Of a stretch of 64,000 bases of DNA, positions 15,045-23,207 are shown one piece after another. The translations under genes were made by a program, and so were the position numbers. Position 1 is the stretch's first letter. Each line of letters begins with the position of its first letter. This DNA is from a virus (taxonomy: Duplodnaviria; Caudoviricetes): IMG/VR virus record IMGVR_UViG_3300037467_001237, positions 6,370 to 70,369 of that record; one strand, written 5' to 3'. Under the pieces are notes generated by a model. That model saw nothing but the letters and a program-made list of their open reading frames with translations, made no database searches and was not told where the DNA came from.

Positions 15045-15157
15045 CCCTAAATGCCTTTTTACTCTGGAAAGGGGCCCGGAACCGAAGCTCCGGGCCAAGT
15101 CTAGGGAGGAAACGCCCAGAAGGGCTGCCACTAGGGCCTATTGAGCTGTCAAATCCG

Positions 15158-15409: not shown

Positions 15410-15500
15410 GAAACTGATATCAGGATCATGATTAAGGTGCAAGAGGCCAACGCGCGGCCAAAGAGGGGTATGGCTATGGTTTCCTTTTTTGAAACTGATA
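15410..15500. promoter_or_regulatory. Lysis/lysogeny switch region with operator-like motifs
   Basis: ATATCAGGATCATGA 15417-15431, palindrome CTGATATCAG 15414-15423, GAAACTGATA at 15410 and 15491. Confidence 0.6.
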
Positions 15501-15559
15501 GGGTGCGAAGCACTCCACTGCCGCTGGCGATTCGCGGCGGGCGGGCGCATATTTTGGAA

Positions 15560-15946
15560 ATGGCAAAGAGAGAGATGCCTGTGATCGACACGGATTTTCC
15601 GCCGACGTCGAGCGAGGCGGTGGCCGCCCGTCTGCGCATCCTGCGCGAAGCGATGGGCTACCCACTTCAGCAGGATTGGTGCGAGGCCGTCGGGCTCAAG
15701 CAGCCGGCCTGGTCGCAGTGGGAGAGAGGCGTTCACCGAATCGCCTCGGACGCGGCGGTCACGCTCTGCGATCGGTTCAGCGGCCTGACGACGGATTGGA
15801 TCTACCGCGGCCTCGACGAGACGCTCCCGCGATCATACCAAGACAGGATCCGGGAAGCTCGGGAGACGCGTCGGCGCCGCCGGGATATGCTGAGCGGCGC
15901 GCCCGTCAGGCCGAGCGTGCCGAAGACTATGGCGAGCGCGCGCTAG
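15560..15946 (+). CDS. CI-like XRE repressor (no S24 peptidase domain seen)
   Basis: RLRILREAMG...QDWCEAVGLKQPAWSQWERG, TDWIYRG. Confidence 0.85.
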   Translation: MAKREMPVIDTDFPPTSSEAVAARLRILREAMGYPLQQDWCEAVGLKQPAWSQWERGVHRIASDAAVTLCDRFSGLTTDWIYRGLDETLPRSYQDRIREARETRRRRRDMLSGAPVRPSVPKTMASAR

Positions 15947-16323
15947 GCCGCCCCGCCCCTGACCACGCGAAGCAGCTCGCGGATCGGGGCCGGCTCCCCG
16001 CCGCCGTTCGTCTGACTCCAGAGCCGCTGAATGTCCGAGATGAAGTACCTGATCACGTGCTCCAGGATGGCGCGCGTCTCTTCGTACTCGCCCCGTGGGA
16101 TGCGCCCGACCAGTTCCATGGCCCCGTCCGCGATCCCGTGATCGATCGTCTCGGTCGCGAGCGCGTCGAGGACGGAGGTGTCGAGGTTGAGGTGCTCGCC
16201 CCAGCACTCGGCATAATTGCTGTCGATGATCCAGATCGCGCGGAGGAGCATGGCCGCCGCCTTCGGGAAGTTGTCGATCGGAAGAGAGCCGACGATGTGG
16301 TATGCGGTCCGAACCCGGATCAT
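15943..16323 (-). CDS. Hypothetical protein
   Basis: ORF convergent with the repressor. Confidence 0.55.
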   Translation of the reverse strand: MIRVRTAYHIVGSLPIDNFPKAAAMLLRAIWIIDSNYAECWGEHLNLDTSVLDALATETIDHGIADGAMELVGRIPRGEYEETRAILEHVIRYFISDIQRLWSQTNGGGEPAPIRELLRVVRGGAA

Positions 16324-16584
16324 TTCCTCTCGCTCCGATACGTTTCTCATTATAGGAACAAACAGAGAACACTCAATGGGTCAGAAGGTCCGGTCGCTCG
16401 GGCCTGTGGACAGTTAGTGGTTTGCTGGACGCCAACTGCTTAGGTCGACTCCGGGCTATGCCAATTTTATAACCATCACAAGTTGATCCCGGGGACCCAG
16501 CCGCATACCGCGAGTGGTGGGCGCAATATGTCACACCGCCGTGAGGCCGTGGAAGTAGGCTTGGCCCTTTTCGCGATATTTTTT

Positions 16585-16634
16585 TCATGACCCTGATATG
16601 GGGCTTGCGCTGTTTCAGGATCCTGAACTAGTAT
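16585..16634 (+). promoter_or_regulatory. Operator plus putative rightward early promoter
   Basis: TCATGACCCTGATAT 16585-16599; TTGCGC-N18-TAGTAT enclosing palindrome TTCAGGATCCTGAA 16614-16627. Confidence 0.55.
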
Positions 16635-16675
16635 CACGGAACTGATAGCGCAATCGCCTTCCAGAGCCCCTCCAC

Positions 16676-17627
16676 ATGCCCGTGACCCAGAGAGAGCGCC
16701 GCATCGCCGACGCTCACGACCGCCTTTGCGACACCAGCGCGACACTCTGCGCCCTCCACATCGCGGACCCTCGGGACATCACCGCCACGCTCAAGGCGGT
16801 CGACACGGCCCTCGTCAGCCTCAACCAGGCCCGAAATCTCCTCTGGCTGGCCCGTAGAAACGACGAAGTCCGCATTTTGGTCTCAGACGTTTTGAGCGCG
16901 CGCCCTCCGTGCGCCGCGGATGATGAACACCGCCTGACGAAATCAGACCTGATTTAATCCGGGCCTTTAATCGCGAGCGACCCCGTGACGCAATAACAGG
17001 GTTGCGACACCAGCCCTGCAAAATCTTCCGAGCACAAACATACATTAATAAAGGATGAGCAGATGACCCGCGAGCCGCACGGGAATCAATACCATTCCGG
17101 CATCAGCCGATGCTCAAATCGCATCGATCTGTCGTCCGACGTTTTAGAGGCGCTGGTCGAGGCGCGGGACGCGTTCGGCGCGATCCCGCTGACCACCAAC
17201 GCGATCAGCGGCGTCGCCCTGTCGGATGAGGCGCGCAAGCGCGTCCGGCGCGCCAAGCTGGCGGTCGAGCGCGCGCTGTCCGTCACGGGAGACGCCGATG
17301 CCCGGTGACGCTCGCATGCCCCTGATCCTCTGGGCCAGCCGCGTCGAGTACGGGGAGCTGATCTCCGCGCTCGGAGCCGATGACAGCTTCCACGAGATCC
17401 TGCGCCGGGTCGTGCTGGCGCACCAGGAGCGCGTCGCGAGCGTGACGTTCACGATCGCCCAAGCCGACGCCGAGCGGATCACCGACAGCCTCGACATCTC
17501 GGACTTCCCCGATGTCGCCGACCTCGTCGAGCAGATGCGCGAGCAGCTCGACTGGCTGCGGCGCAACCAGAACATCACCGCCAAGCGCTTCGCGCTGCCG
17601 AACGTCGGCACGTTCTTCGGAGATTGA
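16676..17627 (+). other. Three early hypothetical ORFs (16676-16957, 17063-17308, 17316-17627)
   Basis: Co-oriented ORFs upstream of the first pentamer array. Confidence 0.55.
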
Positions 17628-17641
17628 GGGAGGCAGCAACC

Positions 17642-17893
17642 TTGCCCACCGGCCGACGCATCGAGGTGCGCCGCCCGGTGGGCAACCACCACGGCGCAGC
17701 TCTGCGCGGCGCTCCGCGTCGCCACGCATCACTTCGCATCGCAGCGCTACGCAACGCAACGCAACGGGTGCCCAGCACCGGCCGCCTCAGAAATGGGGCG
17801 GCCCATGGTGGGCAACCACCACCGTCGCCACGCAGCGCGACGCCGCGCCCCGCATCACAACGCAACTCACCGCAACACAACGCAACGTCCTAA
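17642..17893 (+). ncRNA. CGC-NN pentamer array A (two guide-like tracts, 17690-17766 and 17821-17887) with structured module 17767-17820
   Basis: Phased units such as cac-gg cgc-ag ctc-tg cgc-gg cgc-tc cgc-gt; 54-nt module repeated at 18552 and 18672. Confidence 0.8.
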
Positions 17894-17905
17894 AGGAAGA
17901 TCATC

Positions 17906-18469
17906 ATGAAAATCGTTGAAGTGGATCTGGTCTCGACCGCCCCGTATTCGCAGTCGTACAAGCACGACACTCCGAAGAAGGACAAGGAGAGCGCCGACGA
18001 CCACGAGAAGCGCACTTGGCGGGAGAAATGCACGACTGACGCCGAAGGGAATATTCAGATCCCGGCCATGGCATTCAAGCAGGCGCTCGACAGCGTCGCG
18101 AAGCGCATGGGCATCCAGGTCCCCGGCCGCGGCAAGAACACCTACACCAAGCACTTCCTCGGCGGCGTGATCTGCGAGTCCGATGTGGCGATCGGCTATC
18201 ACAAGGACACGGTCCCAAGCATCACGATCAGCGCCAACTCTGACGGCGTCCGCGGATCGGGCAAGCGCGTATCGCGCACCTTTCCGCAGGTCCCGGAGTG
18301 GAAGGGAACCGCTCGGTTCGTCATCCTCGACGACACGGTCACGACTGAGGTCTTTGAGAAGCATCTCGTCGAGGCCGGTCGCTTCATCGGCATCGGCCGC
18401 TTCCGCCCCGAGAAGGGCGGCCTCAATGGGCGCTTCCGTCCGACCGCGTTCCGCTGGTCGGACATCTAA
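17906..18469 (+). CDS. RAMP/Cas7-like protein (Vipr-like, locus 1)
   Basis: N-terminal strand VDLVSTAPY, IPAMAFKQAL (cf. RAMP IPGSSLKGAL), Gly-rich loop AGRFIGIGRFRPEKGGLNGRF; embedded between arrays. Confidence 0.75.
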   Translation: MKIVEVDLVSTAPYSQSYKHDTPKKDKESADDHEKRTWREKCTTDAEGNIQIPAMAFKQALDSVAKRMGIQVPGRGKNTYTKHFLGGVICESDVAIGYHKDTVPSITISANSDGVRGSGKRVSRTFPQVPEWKGTARFVILDDTVTTEVFEKHLVEAGRFIGIGRFRPEKGGLNGRFRPTAFRWSDI

Positions 18470-18480
18470 ATAAGCTTCCC

Positions 18481-18799
18481 CGCGCTGCGCGACGCGACAC
18501 ACCGCAACTCGTCGCTCCGCATCGCATCGCAACGCCTCGCAACGCAACGAAGGTGCCCAGCACCAGCCGCCTCCGAAAGGGGGTGGCTCATGGTGGGCAA
18601 CCACCGAACTGCACCGCCCCGCAACGCAACGCAGCGCTACGCGCCGCAACTCACCACAACACCCCGCAACGGGTGCCCAGCACCAGCCGCCTCCGAAAGG
18701 GGGTGGCTCATGGTGGGCAACCACCGAACTGCACCGCGCAGCGCGACGCGGCGCCTCGCATCACAGTGCAACGCATCTCAACGCAACGCGACGTCCTAA
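18481..18799 (+). ncRNA. CGC-NN pentamer array B (tracts 18481-18550, 18610-18670, 18732-18793) separated by identical 54-nt modules
   Basis: 14 in-phase NN-CNC units at 18481-18550 (last unit cga); modules 18552-18605 and 18672-18725 are identical. Confidence 0.85.
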
Positions 18800-18812
18800 C
18801 CCGGAGATCTCA

Positions 18813-19310
18813 ATGTCCGAAAAGCCCACCTACCAGATGAGCGTCGACAGTCGGCTCGTCTATCAGGCTATGAAGAAGGTCGAGGTCGGCGCGTCGATCA
18901 CGCACCAGGCGCTTCAGGAGGCGACGTCCCGCAAGCTGAGCCAGATCCGGGACTCGATCAGGACTGCCATCCGGCGCCTGCGCAAGGATGACGGCATGGT
19001 CTTCGTCAGCGTCCGTGGCGTCGGCTACAAGCGCTGCACCGACGAGGACATCGTCGACAACTCCATTTCGGACACGGGCGCGGTTCGCCGCAAGGCGCGG
19101 GTCGCCGTCGAGCGGCTGACCAAGGTCCGCGACTACGCCGCCCTGCCGCCCAAGAAGCAACTCGAGCACACCACGCGCCTCTCCGTGCTCGGCGTGATCG
19201 CCAGCATGACGCGCGAACCGGCGATGGAACGGGTCCGGCAGGCTGCGAACGGTCGTGCGAGCGAACTGCCGATTGCTGAAACGCTCCGCGCATTCCAGGA
19301 GCGGGCCTGA
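18813..19310 (+). CDS. Array-associated hypothetical protein (possible winged-helix)
   Basis: Starts just after array B with GGAG RBS; ITHQALQEATSR...VSVRGVGYKR. Confidence 0.65.
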   Translation: MSEKPTYQMSVDSRLVYQAMKKVEVGASITHQALQEATSRKLSQIRDSIRTAIRRLRKDDGMVFVSVRGVGYKRCTDEDIVDNSISDTGAVRRKARVAVERLTKVRDYAALPPKKQLEHTTRLSVLGVIASMTREPAMERVRQAANGRASELPIAETLRAFQERA

Positions 19311-20242
19311 TGCCCCGCCGTGCTTGGACCGGCTCGGACCGGAAGTGGCTGGCCGAGAACTATCAGAAGCTCGGCGCCAAGGCATGCGCTGAGCATTTGG
19401 GCAACGCGACCGTCGGTGGCGTGCGCGACTTCGCTCAGAAGCACGGCTTCACCCGGCGCGCCGCGGACATCCAGTACCCCCCGTCGGACTTTGTCGACGC
19501 CGCGATCCGGCGCTGCCATGCGAGCGGCAGCGCCCAGCCGTGGACTGATGCCTCGCGGCAGGTCGGCCGCCCAGTGCGGTGGGTGCGCAAGCGCGCGGAG
19601 GCGCTGGGCCTGCGGGTCCGACGTGAGCGCTCCCCTTGGACGAAGGGCGAGACGGACTTCGTTCTCAAGCGCCTGCACTGGCCGGCTCACCGGATCGCGG
19701 CCGAGATGCAGGAGAACGGCTGGAAGCGGACGCTGCACGCCGTCCAGCACTTCCTGCGGAGCCAGGGGCTGCAAAGGAGCGATACGAGCCACATGACCGC
19801 TGAAGGGGCGGCCGCAGCGCTTGGCGTCGCCCTGTCCTCGCTGCGGCGGTGGATCGACACGGGGCTACTGATCGCCGAGCGCCGCGACCCGACCCCCGGT
19901 GGCTACAAGTCGATCGCCATCGCCGAGGAGGATCTCGCGGCCTTCATCCTCCTCAATCCCGAGCGGATCGATTTCATCAAGATCGAGCGCGCCCGGACCA
20001 AGACGTGGTTCCTCGACCTGATCTCCCGCTTTCCGAAGCCGCCATCCAAGATGGACGACTATCTGCGCCGCCAGATCGCGTCGCTGCGCACGTTCCGCCC
20101 GGACTTCGACAATGAGCGGATCGCGACGACGCTGGGCGTCGAGGAGAAGACCGTGCGCGAGGCTGTGGCTCACGCACGTGAGATCGAGCGTCAACGCGTC
20201 CTCGCGCGCGCGCAGCGTCGCGAACAGAGGGAAGCTGCGTGA
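19310..20242 (+). CDS. Multi-HTH DNA-binding protein
   Basis: Repeated W(T/S)..E..(W/F)L motifs and MTAEGAAAALGVALSSLRRWIDTGLL excisionase-like HTH. Confidence 0.6.
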   Translation: MPRRAWTGSDRKWLAENYQKLGAKACAEHLGNATVGGVRDFAQKHGFTRRAADIQYPPSDFVDAAIRRCHASGSAQPWTDASRQVGRPVRWVRKRAEALGLRVRRERSPWTKGETDFVLKRLHWPAHRIAAEMQENGWKRTLHAVQHFLRSQGLQRSDTSHMTAEGAAAALGVALSSLRRWIDTGLLIAERRDPTPGGYKSIAIAEEDLAAFILLNPERIDFIKIERARTKTWFLDLISRFPKPPSKMDDYLRRQIASLRTFRPDFDNERIATTLGVEEKTVREAVAHAREIERQRVLARAQRREQREAA

Positions 20243-20823
20243 TGCGCAACCGTCCTGTCACCGGCCCGGAGATCGAGCGCATGCGCGCGATGGCGCGCGA
20301 TGGCGCCTCGCTGATGGAGATCGCCGAAGCCGTCGGCCGCTCCAACACGGCGGTCCGCAAGCACGCGGGCGACCTGATCCCGATCAGACGCGTGTCGCAG
20401 CGGGAGATCGAGCGCATCCGGGCGATGGCTCGGGACGGCGTGCGGCTGACGCACATCGCTAGAGCGGTGAAGCGGAGCCAGGCGGTGATCCGCAAGTATG
20501 CCGACGACCTGATCCCGCTCGGGCAACGGCCCGTCGCCGATCTCGAGCGCATCCTCGACTTGGCGCGCGCCGGCCGATCGGTCGCCTTCATCGCGGCCGA
20601 AGTGGAGTGCAGCGAGGCGTGCGTCTGGAGGCATACCCGCGCGATCCGAAAGCAGCGTCGCCGCGCCCGACTTGAGCGCCTGCTGCGCGACTACGAACGG
20701 GCCGACCCCGGACAGATCCACGCGCTCGCGACGCGCTTCGGGTACGCGAGCGCCGCCTCGCTCAGCGTGACCGTCCACCACATCCGCAAGCAGATGCGCG
20801 CCGAGATGAGAGAGGCCGCCTGA
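20242..20823 (+). CDS. Protein with tandem HTH repeats
   Basis: Repeats EIERMRAMARDGASLMEIAEAVGRS / EIERIRAMARDGVRLTHIARAVKRS. Confidence 0.7.
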   Translation: MRNRPVTGPEIERMRAMARDGASLMEIAEAVGRSNTAVRKHAGDLIPIRRVSQREIERIRAMARDGVRLTHIARAVKRSQAVIRKYADDLIPLGQRPVADLERILDLARAGRSVAFIAAEVECSEACVWRHTRAIRKQRRRARLERLLRDYERADPGQIHALATRFGYASAASLSVTVHHIRKQMRAEMREAA

Positions 20824-21155
20824 TGTCCGCCCCCTGCCCCCTCACCCCGAACAAGGCATTGCAGGCGCTTGGGCTGCCAGCGCGAGCTTACAACGCGCTG
20901 CGCGCCTGCCTGCCGGACATCACCGTCGAAGAACTCCGCGGCATGTCCGAGGAGCGGCTGATGTGCATCCCCGGCATGGGGCAGCGCAGCGCCCGAGCCG
21001 TGGTGGAGGCCGTCACCCCGCCCCCGGCGGACGAGGCCGAGCAGATCGATCGCTGGGTGGCCGGGCACAGGACCCTGCTCCTGGCGCTCGCCCGCGGCGA
21101 GGCGCTCGTCCTGCCGCTGAGCAGCTTCATTCTTTCGCAGAGTGCGCAGCAATGA
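20823..21155 (+). CDS. RNA polymerase alpha-CTD-like protein
   Basis: LGLPARAYNAL...TVEELRGMSEERLMCIPGMGQRS matches the alphaCTD pattern LSVRS.NCL...L....L...PN.G.KS. Confidence 0.75.
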   Translation: MSAPCPLTPNKALQALGLPARAYNALRACLPDITVEELRGMSEERLMCIPGMGQRSARAVVEAVTPPPADEAEQIDRWVAGHRTLLLALARGEALVLPLSSFILSQSAQQ

Positions 21156-21724
21156 ACGCCCGACCCGACCCCTACGCGATCATCGCTGCGCTGCGCGAGG
21201 AGAACGAGATCCTGCGCTGGGAGCTGGAGGATCTGCGCGCGACCATTGCGCCGCCGATGACGTTTCCGATCGCATGGCGGCTCACGCAACAGGAGAGCGC
21301 CGTGCTGGCGGTAATCCTCGGGGCGAGCCCCGCTGTCGCGACATTCGAGCGCCTGGCTTACGCGATCTACGGCGAGGGCGCGCCCGACACTGCGCGCAAC
21401 TGCATCGCGGCCTTTGTGGTGCGACTGCGTCGTAAGCTCGCCGCCGCGGGGCTCTGCCCGGCAATCCAGACTACGGCGGGGAAAGGATACCAGATCAGCG
21501 CCGCCGATCGGGGTCTCTTGCTTGCAGAGCCGGGCGCTGATGAGCCGCTCTGGTGGGCCACCGCACGCCGCATGCATGCGAATGGCGCGACCTACCCGCA
21601 AATCGCTGCCGCATGCCGCAAGCGCCCCGACGCCGTGCGCCGCTTCCTTAACCCGGAGCGGCGGTCCTACGACATTGAGCGGAAGCGCCGAGGGCGCCGG
21701 CTCGCATCGGGGAAGGCTGCCTGA
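21152..21724 (+). CDS. Winged-helix regulator (OmpR C-terminal-like)
   Basis: LTQQESAVL, IAAFVVRLRRKL, IQTTAGKGYQI. Confidence 0.75.
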   Translation: MNARPDPYAIIAALREENEILRWELEDLRATIAPPMTFPIAWRLTQQESAVLAVILGASPAVATFERLAYAIYGEGAPDTARNCIAAFVVRLRRKLAAAGLCPAIQTTAGKGYQISAADRGLLLAEPGADEPLWWATARRMHANGATYPQIAAACRKRPDAVRRFLNPERRSYDIERKRRGRRLASGKAA

Positions 21725-22269
21725 TGGGCGAGCGCAAGCGCCGGCAGGCCGCCGGCTACGTCCCGCCGCCCCAGTTGACCGAGCGTCAGCGGATCGAGTT
21801 GTCGATCCCCGCCGCGCTGGTCGCCGCCCTCGCCTATGCGAACGTGTTCGGCGGCGACGACGCGGAGGAAGTCGAGCGGCAGTCTAAGCACCTGCAAGGG
21901 CTCGTCATCGCCGGCTTGACGGAGCCGTTCGCCGATCTGTCCGGCGCTCACAAGCGCCGGCTGATCACCGCCACGACCGATCTGTGCCGGAGTTGCATCG
22001 CCGAGATGGGCTGGGAGAACCAGCCCTCGGTCAAGTTCGCGATGAGCTACTACTACTGGATCGAGGACCTGCTGAGCAGAGGCGTCCTTGAACTCGCCGA
22101 GGGCTCGGCGATGGGCGAGGCTCTGACGATGCTTCTCCCGATGATGTCCCATGGCTTCGAGCACGAGGCACGGGACGCCAGCGCCCAGAAGCAGGCGCGC
22201 AAGCTCCTGCGCTGGCTCCAGGGACGCGGGTTCTATGCCGAGGCGGTGAATGAACGGGAGGCGGCGTGA
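21724..22269 (+). CDS. Hypothetical protein (181 aa)
   Basis: Coupled ORF. Confidence 0.65.
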   Translation: MGERKRRQAAGYVPPPQLTERQRIELSIPAALVAALAYANVFGGDDAEEVERQSKHLQGLVIAGLTEPFADLSGAHKRRLITATTDLCRSCIAEMGWENQPSVKFAMSYYYWIEDLLSRGVLELAEGSAMGEALTMLLPMMSHGFEHEARDASAQKQARKLLRWLQGRGFYAEAVNEREAA

Positions 22270-22347
22270 TGCCGCCTCGCACAGCAGGAATTATCTTTTC
22301 GTCCCCTCCCTATGCCGCTAGAACTCTAGCAGCATAGGAACATAGCA

Positions 22348-22998
22348 ATGAAAACTGTGAGCTTCGTCAGCCTCAAAGGGGGCACATCGAAATCGACGCT
22401 CGCCCGGCACGTCGCCGTGGCGGCGACCCGAGCCGGGCACCGCGTCGTGGTCATGGACTGCGATCAGCAGGCGACGCTCCGCGATTGGGGGCAGGAGCGC
22501 ACAGGGCCGCCCGAGGTCATCGGGGAGACCTCGACCTCGCGCCGGTACGTCGAGATGGCGTTGGAGAAGCTGCGCAAGGCCGGAACCGACATCGTCTTGA
22601 TCGACACGCCCGGCGCCTTCGAGGGGGGCTACTCCGCCAACGCCATTGCGCTCGCCGACTTTGTGATCGTCCCATGCCGGCCGACCGGCGAGGACACGGC
22701 GACCTTCTGGGAGACCGAGCAGCGCGTGACGGAAGCGCGCAAGCCGTTCGGCGCCGTCATCAGTCAGGCGCCAACTACGACCCAGAAGCCGGCTGTCGAC
22801 CTGATGGCGCTGTTCGTCGAGAGCGGCGTGCGTGTCTGCCCGGTGCCGGTCCACCTTCGGCAGATCATCGCCAATTCGTATGCAGGCGGCAAAACCGTCT
22901 TTGAGGTCCCCACCGAAAGCGAGTCCGACCGCCGCGCCGTTCACGAGATGACCGCGGTTTGGACGTGGCTCGCCGGCAGCATCGGAGTGAAGGCATGA
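22348..22998 (+). CDS. parA: ParA family partition ATPase (type Ib, short)
   Basis: SLKGGTSKST deviant Walker A, VMDCDQQ, LIDTPG, ADFVIVP. Confidence 0.92.
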   Translation: MKTVSFVSLKGGTSKSTLARHVAVAATRAGHRVVVMDCDQQATLRDWGQERTGPPEVIGETSTSRRYVEMALEKLRKAGTDIVLIDTPGAFEGGYSANAIALADFVIVPCRPTGEDTATFWETEQRVTEARKPFGAVISQAPTTTQKPAVDLMALFVESGVRVCPVPVHLRQIIANSYAGGKTVFEVPTESESDRRAVHEMTAVWTWLAGSIGVKA

Positions 22999-23207
22999 GT
23001 GTCCTGAAGGGCCGTCCGCCGCGCAAGGATGCGCCGGCTACAAAGTCGGCGGGCCGCAGCACGCTTCCCGACGACGCCAAAATCACAATCGCGACGCGCG
23101 TCACGAACGCCCAGCACACCCGCATGAAGATCGTCGCGGCACAGAACCGGATCAGCGTCGAGGAGGCGTATCGTGCTGCGATTGATGCATATTTACGGAA
23201 CTTCTAG
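22995..23207 (+). CDS. ParG-like ribbon-helix-helix partner
   Basis: Overlaps the parA stop; ITIATRVT...MKIVAAQNRISVEE RHH pattern. Confidence 0.65.
   Translation: MSVLKGRPPRKDAPATKSAGRSTLPDDAKITIATRVTNAQHTRMKIVAAQNRISVEEAYRAAIDAYLRNF

Follow-up and report, generated by a model that had tools for sequence, protein, structure and literature searches.

VIPR, a CRISPR-related gene silencer described in 2026, comprises a small ancestral RAMP protein (Vipr), an accessory gene, vap, with a role in DNA interaction, and guide RNAs termed vrRNAs (bioRxiv 10.64898/2026.04.26.720920). As set out in that preprint, a vrRNA is built from 9-16 pentamers, in each of which three letters are conserved and two vary, and ends in an invariant structured 3' tail, and vrRNAs are expressed as transcripts of ~100 nt that are bound by Vipr; related repeat forms such as YNNNG are allowed, and seven VIPR types have been published. 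The shared tail is treated as rendering a vrRNA competent for complex formation with Vipr (10.64898/2026.10.15.759431). In the type II system of Escherichia phage SUSP1, the tail is described as a pseudoknot of ~40 nt directly 3' of a pentamer guide tract with the constant triplet GGY, copies of the tail lie between arrayed guides, and the small Cas7-like Vipr gene and an accessory gene are adjacent (10.64898/2026.04.26.720920; 10.64898/2026.04.26.720927). In systems of types I and V, hammerhead ribozymes are interspersed in the vrRNA arrays (fig. S19 in 10.64898/2026.04.26.720920). The excision of guides from arrays is left unexplained in the main text of the preprint.

The stretch of DNA analyzed here (64,000 nt, hereafter the window) makes up most of a 70.4-kb IMG/VR virus record, whose phage genes include those for tail and baseplate proteins, a portal and a primase. 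Between positions 17628 and 18812, the + strand carries a structured module (M0-M3) and pentamer arrays (A1-A5) around a vipr-like gene, in the order M0, A1, M1, A2, vipr-like gene, A3, M2, A4, M3 and A5, and a partner gene follows. The parts are listed below, with the scores of the modules against a covariance model, R1.

17639-17693, + strand: degenerate module copy M0, located past the upstream gene's stop (17627) and ahead of array A1; a single long hairpin ending GGUGG-GCAA-CCACC; 55.1 bits.
17690-17766, + strand: array A1; 15 CGC-NN pentamers, the last three units being CGCAA, then CG.
17767-17820, + strand: module M1; 5' arm 17769-17774 and 3' arm 17809-17814; apical stem 17780-17789 / 17794-17803 with GAAA loop 17790-17793; rival hairpin 17807-17811 / 17816-17820; 57.6 bits.
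17826-17887, + strand: array A2; 12 pentamers, no module after it; continues into UCCUAA and the vipr ribosome-binding site.
17906-18469, + strand: vipr-like gene; 187 aa, single-domain Cas7/RAMP fold.
18483-18549, + strand: array A3; 13 pentamers and CG, beginning 13 nt past the vipr stop, no module before it.
18552-18605, + strand: module M2; 57.3 bits.
18606-18671, + strand: array A4 with 11 pentamers and CG, preceded by a short conserved leader (18606-18614).
18672-18725, + strand: module M3, its core identical to that of M2; 55.8 bits.
18726-18799, + strand: leader and array A5, a diverged paralogue of A2; ends in UCCUAA and a ribosome-binding-site unit.
18813-19310, + strand: partner (vap-like) gene; 165 aa, conserved.

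In layout, with a Cas7-like Vipr, a conserved partner and pentamer arrays on the gene strand, the locus fits a VIPR system. The Vipr-like protein is a small single-domain RAMP with a glycine-rich loop near the C-terminus, where a G/R-rich block (G158-R176) is invariant. Its structure was predicted by AlphaFold2 with a pLDDT of 86, and the best Foldseek matches to the model were type VII Cas7, Csm3 and Cmr4 (E 5e-7, prob 1.0). We identified 1442 homologues, while Pfam and sequence searches of the PDB gave no match and tblastn against 50,697 cultured-phage records found none; at the DNA level, positions 15500-23000 likewise had no match in cultured phages. The partner protein, for which no Pfam or PHROG match was obtained, is 42% identical (E 3e-32) to the product of the gene at the same position in a Devosia riboflavina prophage locus (L264) and 24% identical to its positional counterpart at locus L133.

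Tandem pentamers with three conserved and two variable letters, in runs of at least four units, flank the vipr-like gene on its own strand. The five arrays are runs of 11-15 pentamers in which CGC (sometimes CAC or CTC) is constant and two letters vary. Among ~195 fetched loci with a vipr homologue flanked by such arrays, 572 arrays (472 of them unique) lie on the gene strand and 4 on the opposite one, and canonical GGC-NN arrays occur on the same strand in the distant members L004 and L006, which fixes the transcribed strand. A run of CGCAA ends arrays family-wide, the variable letters being AA, AA at the end of 136 of the 472 unique arrays. At three further loci (L005, L046 and L063), whose Vipr homologues are ~50% identical, the arrays are almost exclusively CAC-NN, so that the middle letter of the constant triplet varies between lineages. 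Arrays A2 (17828-17893) and A5 (18734-18799) are paralogues, 85% identical, upstream of the vipr-like gene and the partner gene, respectively; they share the terminal UCCUAA and ribosome-binding-site unit and differ mostly at the variable letters. The guide role of the flanking arrays is proposed by homology with described vrRNAs. Under a rule of skipping one nucleotide, guide targets above the level of shuffled guides were not found in the window or in 1.2 Mb of the fetched loci, and exact scans for two other guide cores in viral contigs found none. An exact match to ten guide units in an AT-rich contig (L292) was treated as chance, its flanks not extending the match.

The module had been described in a first-pass annotation, made from the sequence alone, as a 54-nt element present in three copies and one degenerate copy. 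Copies are found at those positions far above chance, three of them near-identical: the 5' half of the module occurs three times in 64 kb (17767, 18552 and 18672; expected 0.02, 0 of 100 shuffles), and the 3' half four times, one occurrence being the degenerate copy at 17675-17690 (expected 0.37). M2 and M3 are 97% identical across 71 nt, and the starts of the three copies are spaced by 785 and 120 nt. A mobile repeat of the REP or MITE type was rejected as an explanation, as no copy of the module was found beyond this locus in the 70-kb genome. The two compensatory swaps reported for the GAAA-capped stem are borne out: between M1 and M2/M3, the 10-bp stem has changed from G-C to A-U at its base and from A-U to C-G at the loop-closing pair, with one additional change from G-C to G-U, and the apical loop is GAAA in M1, M2 and M3. 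Both the basal UGCCCA/UGGGCA pairing and the overlapping GGUGG-GCAA-CCACC hairpin were also recovered, and the degenerate copy forms a long, near-perfect hairpin with 19-nt arms (17642-17660 / 17667-17685) that are 89% complementary. Folds of the + strand had z-scores of -3.9 to -4.4, and 0 of 200 shuffles were as stable.

The same architecture, built from other sequence, was identified at six further VIPR-type loci (L193, L198, L227, L237, L133 and L264), with two copies each in L198 and L237 and at least four in one long array in L133. It begins with a 5' arm of 6-8 nt followed by an A-U pair, a purine-G mismatch and a C-G pair; then comes an apical hairpin with a GNRA- or UNCG-like tetraloop, typical of RNA, and a 3' arm made up of UGG and the loop of the subsequent GGUGG-loop-CCACC hairpin. 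In every copy, the 5' arm is complementary to whatever loop that hairpin has. Among the relatives the architecture is thus conserved, and the module sequence itself is not. As a check on its proposal, the first-pass annotation had called for covariation in homologues, and this is present in the homologous loci by each of the approaches used (MAFFT alignment, RNAalifold and R1-based alignment). In MAFFT alignment A4, which unlike the R1-based one is an independent result, the basal stem is 93.9% paired with a covariation score of 0.38 against 0.17 for shuffled alignments (0/500), and one basal-stem pair occurs as four different Watson-Crick types. RNAalifold recovered the whole long hairpin with 17 pairs, of which 11 show compensatory changes. 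In alignment A6, where 14 copies were aligned with R1 and pairing is inflated by the fit to the structure, 93.2% of cells are paired, compared with 73.5% in shuffled alignments and at most 54% with the partners slid, and double changes occur at 12 of the 17 pairs. The modules of the window score 55-58 bits with R1 on the + strand and 13-28 bits on the minus strand; together with the frequent G-U pairs, the low minus-strand scores indicate that the + strand RNA is the functional (selected) form. The module is a real, evolutionarily maintained RNA hairpin. Every confident R1 match adjoins pentamer arrays, and none was found elsewhere in the ~1.2 Mb searched. When an exact 15-mer of the 3' hairpin was searched in viral contigs, 93 single matches were obtained, nearly all by chance, and only L133 proved to be a real VIPR array.

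Compared with SUSP1, the locus has, after some of its arrays, a similar conserved, structured non-repeat RNA directly 3' of a pentamer guide tract, copies of it between arrayed guides, and a small Cas7-like gene paired with a candidate accessory gene. It differs in the constant triplet (CGC or CAC instead of GGY) and, comparing descriptions, in having a long interrupted hairpin in competition with a second hairpin where SUSP1 has a pseudoknot tail. Unlike the tail as described for SUSP1, the module is also absent after the last pre-gene array, and in close relatives U-rich spacers take its place. A structured extension is found 3' of A1, A3 and A4, but none is found 3' of A2 or A5, and M0 follows no array.

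The reading that we favor, with a probability of roughly 0.6, is that the module is an RNA punctuation or "tail" element delimiting adjacent VIPR guide RNAs; it probably serves as a processing site and end cap. Sequence, strand, conserved structure and VIPR setting were obtained directly, and from them we infer transcription, cleavage, capping and switching along the following lines. The + strand would be transcribed together with the Vipr gene, and each CGC-NN run would be a guide (vrRNA) along which Vipr protomers polymerize, one per pentamer. The module would break the pentamer register with an interrupted hairpin of ~18 bp, made up of the basal stem, the purine-G mismatch, an internal loop and the tetraloop-capped apical stem, and this hairpin would halt the Vipr filament before the next guide. 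It would also provide a defined cutting site, or a stop to trimming, for host ribonucleases, and would be left capping the upstream guide at its 3' end, the role that the pseudoknot tail has in phage SUSP1. The GGUGG-loop-CCACC hairpin, whose 3' strand would lead into the next guide, shares sequence with the 3' arm of the basal stem; the resulting folds are mutually exclusive and of about equal stability, and may link folding with maturation of the downstream 5' end. The first-pass annotation had offered two options, a CRISPR-repeat-like processing or handle element and a self-cleaving RNA. The former largely holds: the module does separate arrays beside a Cas7-like gene, in the layout of a VIPR system.

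The distribution of the module at the ends of arrays bears on which end it could mark. No module follows the last array before a gene, neither at A2 and A5 nor in the relatives, and no array lies ahead of M0 or of the copy in L264; the module thus does not fit a strict 3' tail or a strict 5' handle. As modules lie between arrays, are missing after pre-gene arrays and twice stand before a first array, they are better understood as a boundary mark than as a mark of one particular end, and the family-wide conserved array end of CGCAA units points to punctuation as well. A stricter possibility is that the long hairpin is a 3' assembly handle, recognized by this Vipr and nucleating the filament in the 3'-to-5' direction as the equivalent of the SUSP1 tail, A2 and A5 then being inactive or decoys. 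The modules directly after A1, A3 and A4 would suit such a handle, and a protein might contact it at the invariant GGUGG and at the conserved motif of A-U, purine-G mismatch and C-G. The tails in the preprints are likewise located 3' of the repeats, where they cap the filament, and are taken to suffice for complex formation (10.64898/2026.04.26.720920; 10.64898/2026.10.15.759431). We nevertheless regard a strict handle as unlikely, since M0 and the L264 copy follow no array, most loci have no separator after the last pre-gene array, and presence of the module does not track the protein tree.

The last point is clearest for L180, the closest relative among the fetched loci and the only one of the nearest protein relatives (P0002-P0006) whose contig was included. 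Its Vipr is 83% identical and forms the sister lineage (support 98), but its separators are U-rich, ~20 nt long and without such a hairpin, and most relatives have short unstructured spacers of this sort. In a FastTree phylogeny of 152 Vipr proteins, for which branch support is SH-like only, the module-bearing loci are scattered, with five changes for six rows. Both this scatter and the U-rich separators of the sister locus speak for punctuation instead of a protein-specific handle. The occurrence within one Vipr clade of bistable hairpins, U-rich spacers and other separators argues that the separator is an exchangeable processing signal and not a handle that co-evolves with the protein, and suggests that the real common element may be the invariant CGCAA repeats at array ends. 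The VIPR system is already known, as in principle are structured tails and structured separators; this hairpin class, its two-fold design and the evidence for free swapping of separators among close Vipr relatives appear to be new. Exchangeable separators could supply design rules for multiplexed synthetic vrRNA arrays.

Other separators were observed among the relatives. At L133:1-900 (IMGVR_UViG_2772190763_000002), one array contains at least seven guides with five or six strongly diverged copies of the hairpin class between them, and the separator ahead of the partner gene is of another type, having three hairpins as in L197; this single array thus holds a mixture of separator types. At L282:2329-2545 (a Polyangiales MAG), GGC-NN arrays are separated by elements with a T-arm-like hairpin, whose 5-bp stem carries a 7-nt UUCGAYU loop; behind it comes an acceptor-like strand that ends in ACCA. 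Judged from its sequence, this separator seems to mimic a tRNA top half, and ARAGORN called no tRNA on L282.

Conversely, the whole module, or only the GGUGG-loop-CCACC hairpin, might stay on or define the 5' end of the next vrRNA. A module is found directly upstream of four of the five arrays (A1, A2, A4 and A5) and none is orphaned; moreover, all lineages have kept a CCACC, with A/C after it, immediately ahead of the next array, and other structured separators likewise end in CCAC. On the other hand, no module precedes A3 or the first arrays of L193, L227 and L237, and the tails of known vrRNAs are described as 3' and not 5' (10.64898/2026.04.26.720920), which makes a 5' element distinctly improbable and leaves a boundary mark between guides as the preferred reading.

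A self-cleaving ribozyme between guides, the second proposal of the first-pass annotation, has a published precedent in VIPR of types I and V, with hammerheads interspersed in the arrays (10.64898/2026.04.26.720920), where structured RNA likewise punctuates adjacent vrRNAs, and the module is compact, conserved and rightly placed for such a role. However, no hammerhead, twister, pistol, hatchet or HDV-like match was obtained from Rfam at E-values up to 10 across 17500-18900, where chance matches of the microRNA type were the only ones, and nothing was found at the gathering score in 18 related loci. The module is also a simple interrupted hairpin with no multi-helix core, its apical stem and loop are free to vary, and unstructured U-rich spacers stand in its place in close relatives. 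A ribozyme is thus scarcely credible, and this part of the earlier proposal was dropped. As the module has neither a hammerhead core nor a match to an Rfam ribozyme, cutting would be left to cellular or Vipr-associated nucleases.

With a CRISPR repeat or Cas6 handle, the module shares the repetition of a hairpin between guide units, which is likely to be kept on the mature RNA, and the company of a RAMP protein. In contrast to CRISPR, there are no unique contiguous spacers but periodic pentamers, the three to four copies are irregularly spaced, and no Cas6, Cas1 or Cas2 was seen among the neighboring genes scanned. A CRISPR array was accordingly rejected; what would be its spacers are pentamer arrays, and no other cas-like gene was seen among the neighbors scanned.

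Modules flank the vipr gene and their two folds are near-isoenergetic, which raises the question of mRNA punctuation unrelated to guides, as RNase III-type sites, as protective stem-loops that would stabilize or tune the vipr and partner mRNAs, or as a two-fold attenuator. A promoter and terminator scan of 16400-19500 gave 0 terminator-like sites and no sigma-70 promoter, from which the region is probably one transcript, as such a role would have it. In the polycistronic transcript of phage T7, RNase III sites of the R1.1 type are hairpins between genes that span about two helical turns and contain an internal loop. The length and internal loop of the module hairpin presumably resemble these sites. 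The likeness is one of description, and the module differs in being confined to the sides of VIPR arrays: in the 64 kb of the window and the flanks of ~290 loci, R1 matches were found only beside pentamer arrays and never at other gene boundaries. In addition, the copies in L133 (about six) separate arrays with no intervening gene, and a U tract for termination is missing. The last feature, with CCACC and a pentamer array coming after the hairpin instead, also led us to reject the module as an intrinsic terminator. Taken together, mRNA punctuation of this general kind is very doubtful, and delimitation of guides remains the reading that we prefer.

The switch between the second hairpin and the basal stem that had been suggested earlier would be compatible with the folding energies. 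When the CCACC strand is included, the long hairpin and the second hairpin lie within ~1-3 kcal/mol of each other in most copies, and M0, L133a and L237b show a clear preference for the long hairpin. The two 5-nt strands, GGUGG and CCACC, are nearly invariant, and covariation for the second hairpin is consequently thin; its few variants in L264 and L133 mostly still pair (two changes from U-A to A-U, one from G-C to U-A and two to G-U), weakly favoring the predicted pairing. Sequence-specific recognition could instead account for the conservation of these strands. Mutually exclusive folds in several independent lineages are nonetheless plausible. An H-type pseudoknot was set aside as seemingly unlikely on steric grounds, given that no loop nucleotides would separate the loop-pairing segment from the 3' strand.

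Every copy has a CCA after the long helix, though its distance from the helix varies (0-3 nt). A CCA-containing strand in this place may resemble the minihelix substrates of RNase P, in which RCCA comes at a fixed distance from the helix. ARAGORN found no tRNA or tmRNA in the region or in 24 related loci. The module could also be a two-state RNA device in which guide maturation is gated by folding or by the loading of Vipr on adjacent repeats, an idea that we rate as rather unlikely. The long-hairpin state would expose a helix and a free CCA-containing strand to a host RNase of the tRNA type or one specific for double strands, and in the other state the GGUGG strand would conceal the CCACC strand. 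If this were true, then, given the U-rich, tRNA-top-half-like and ribozyme separators in relatives, VIPR arrays would swap punctuation modules that each hijack another host RNA-processing pathway.

A second VIPR-like locus was observed in the same phage at 51031-51890 (+ strand); its pentamers are GGC-NN, and its first array is followed by another kind of hairpin. Between its Vipr-like protein and the product of 17906-18469, identity is only 31% over 58 aa. With different triplets and tails, the two loci may be orthogonal, and their presence in one genome offers a natural test case for orthogonality. Across the whole window, the only Rfam match at the gathering score was unrelated to the module: a full-length suhB/MmgR sequence (RF00519) at 15058-15132 on the minus strand, with 56.7 bits against a gathering score of 41. 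This match belongs to an alphaproteobacterial sRNA family and adjoins the early-gene block, just upstream of it; judged by sequence similarity, the phage may here carry a copy of one of its host's regulatory sRNAs. Downstream of the VIPR locus, a direct repeat of 94 nt (20268-20361 and 20403-20496, 70% identical) lies inside helix-turn-helix genes and corresponds to duplicated HTH modules.
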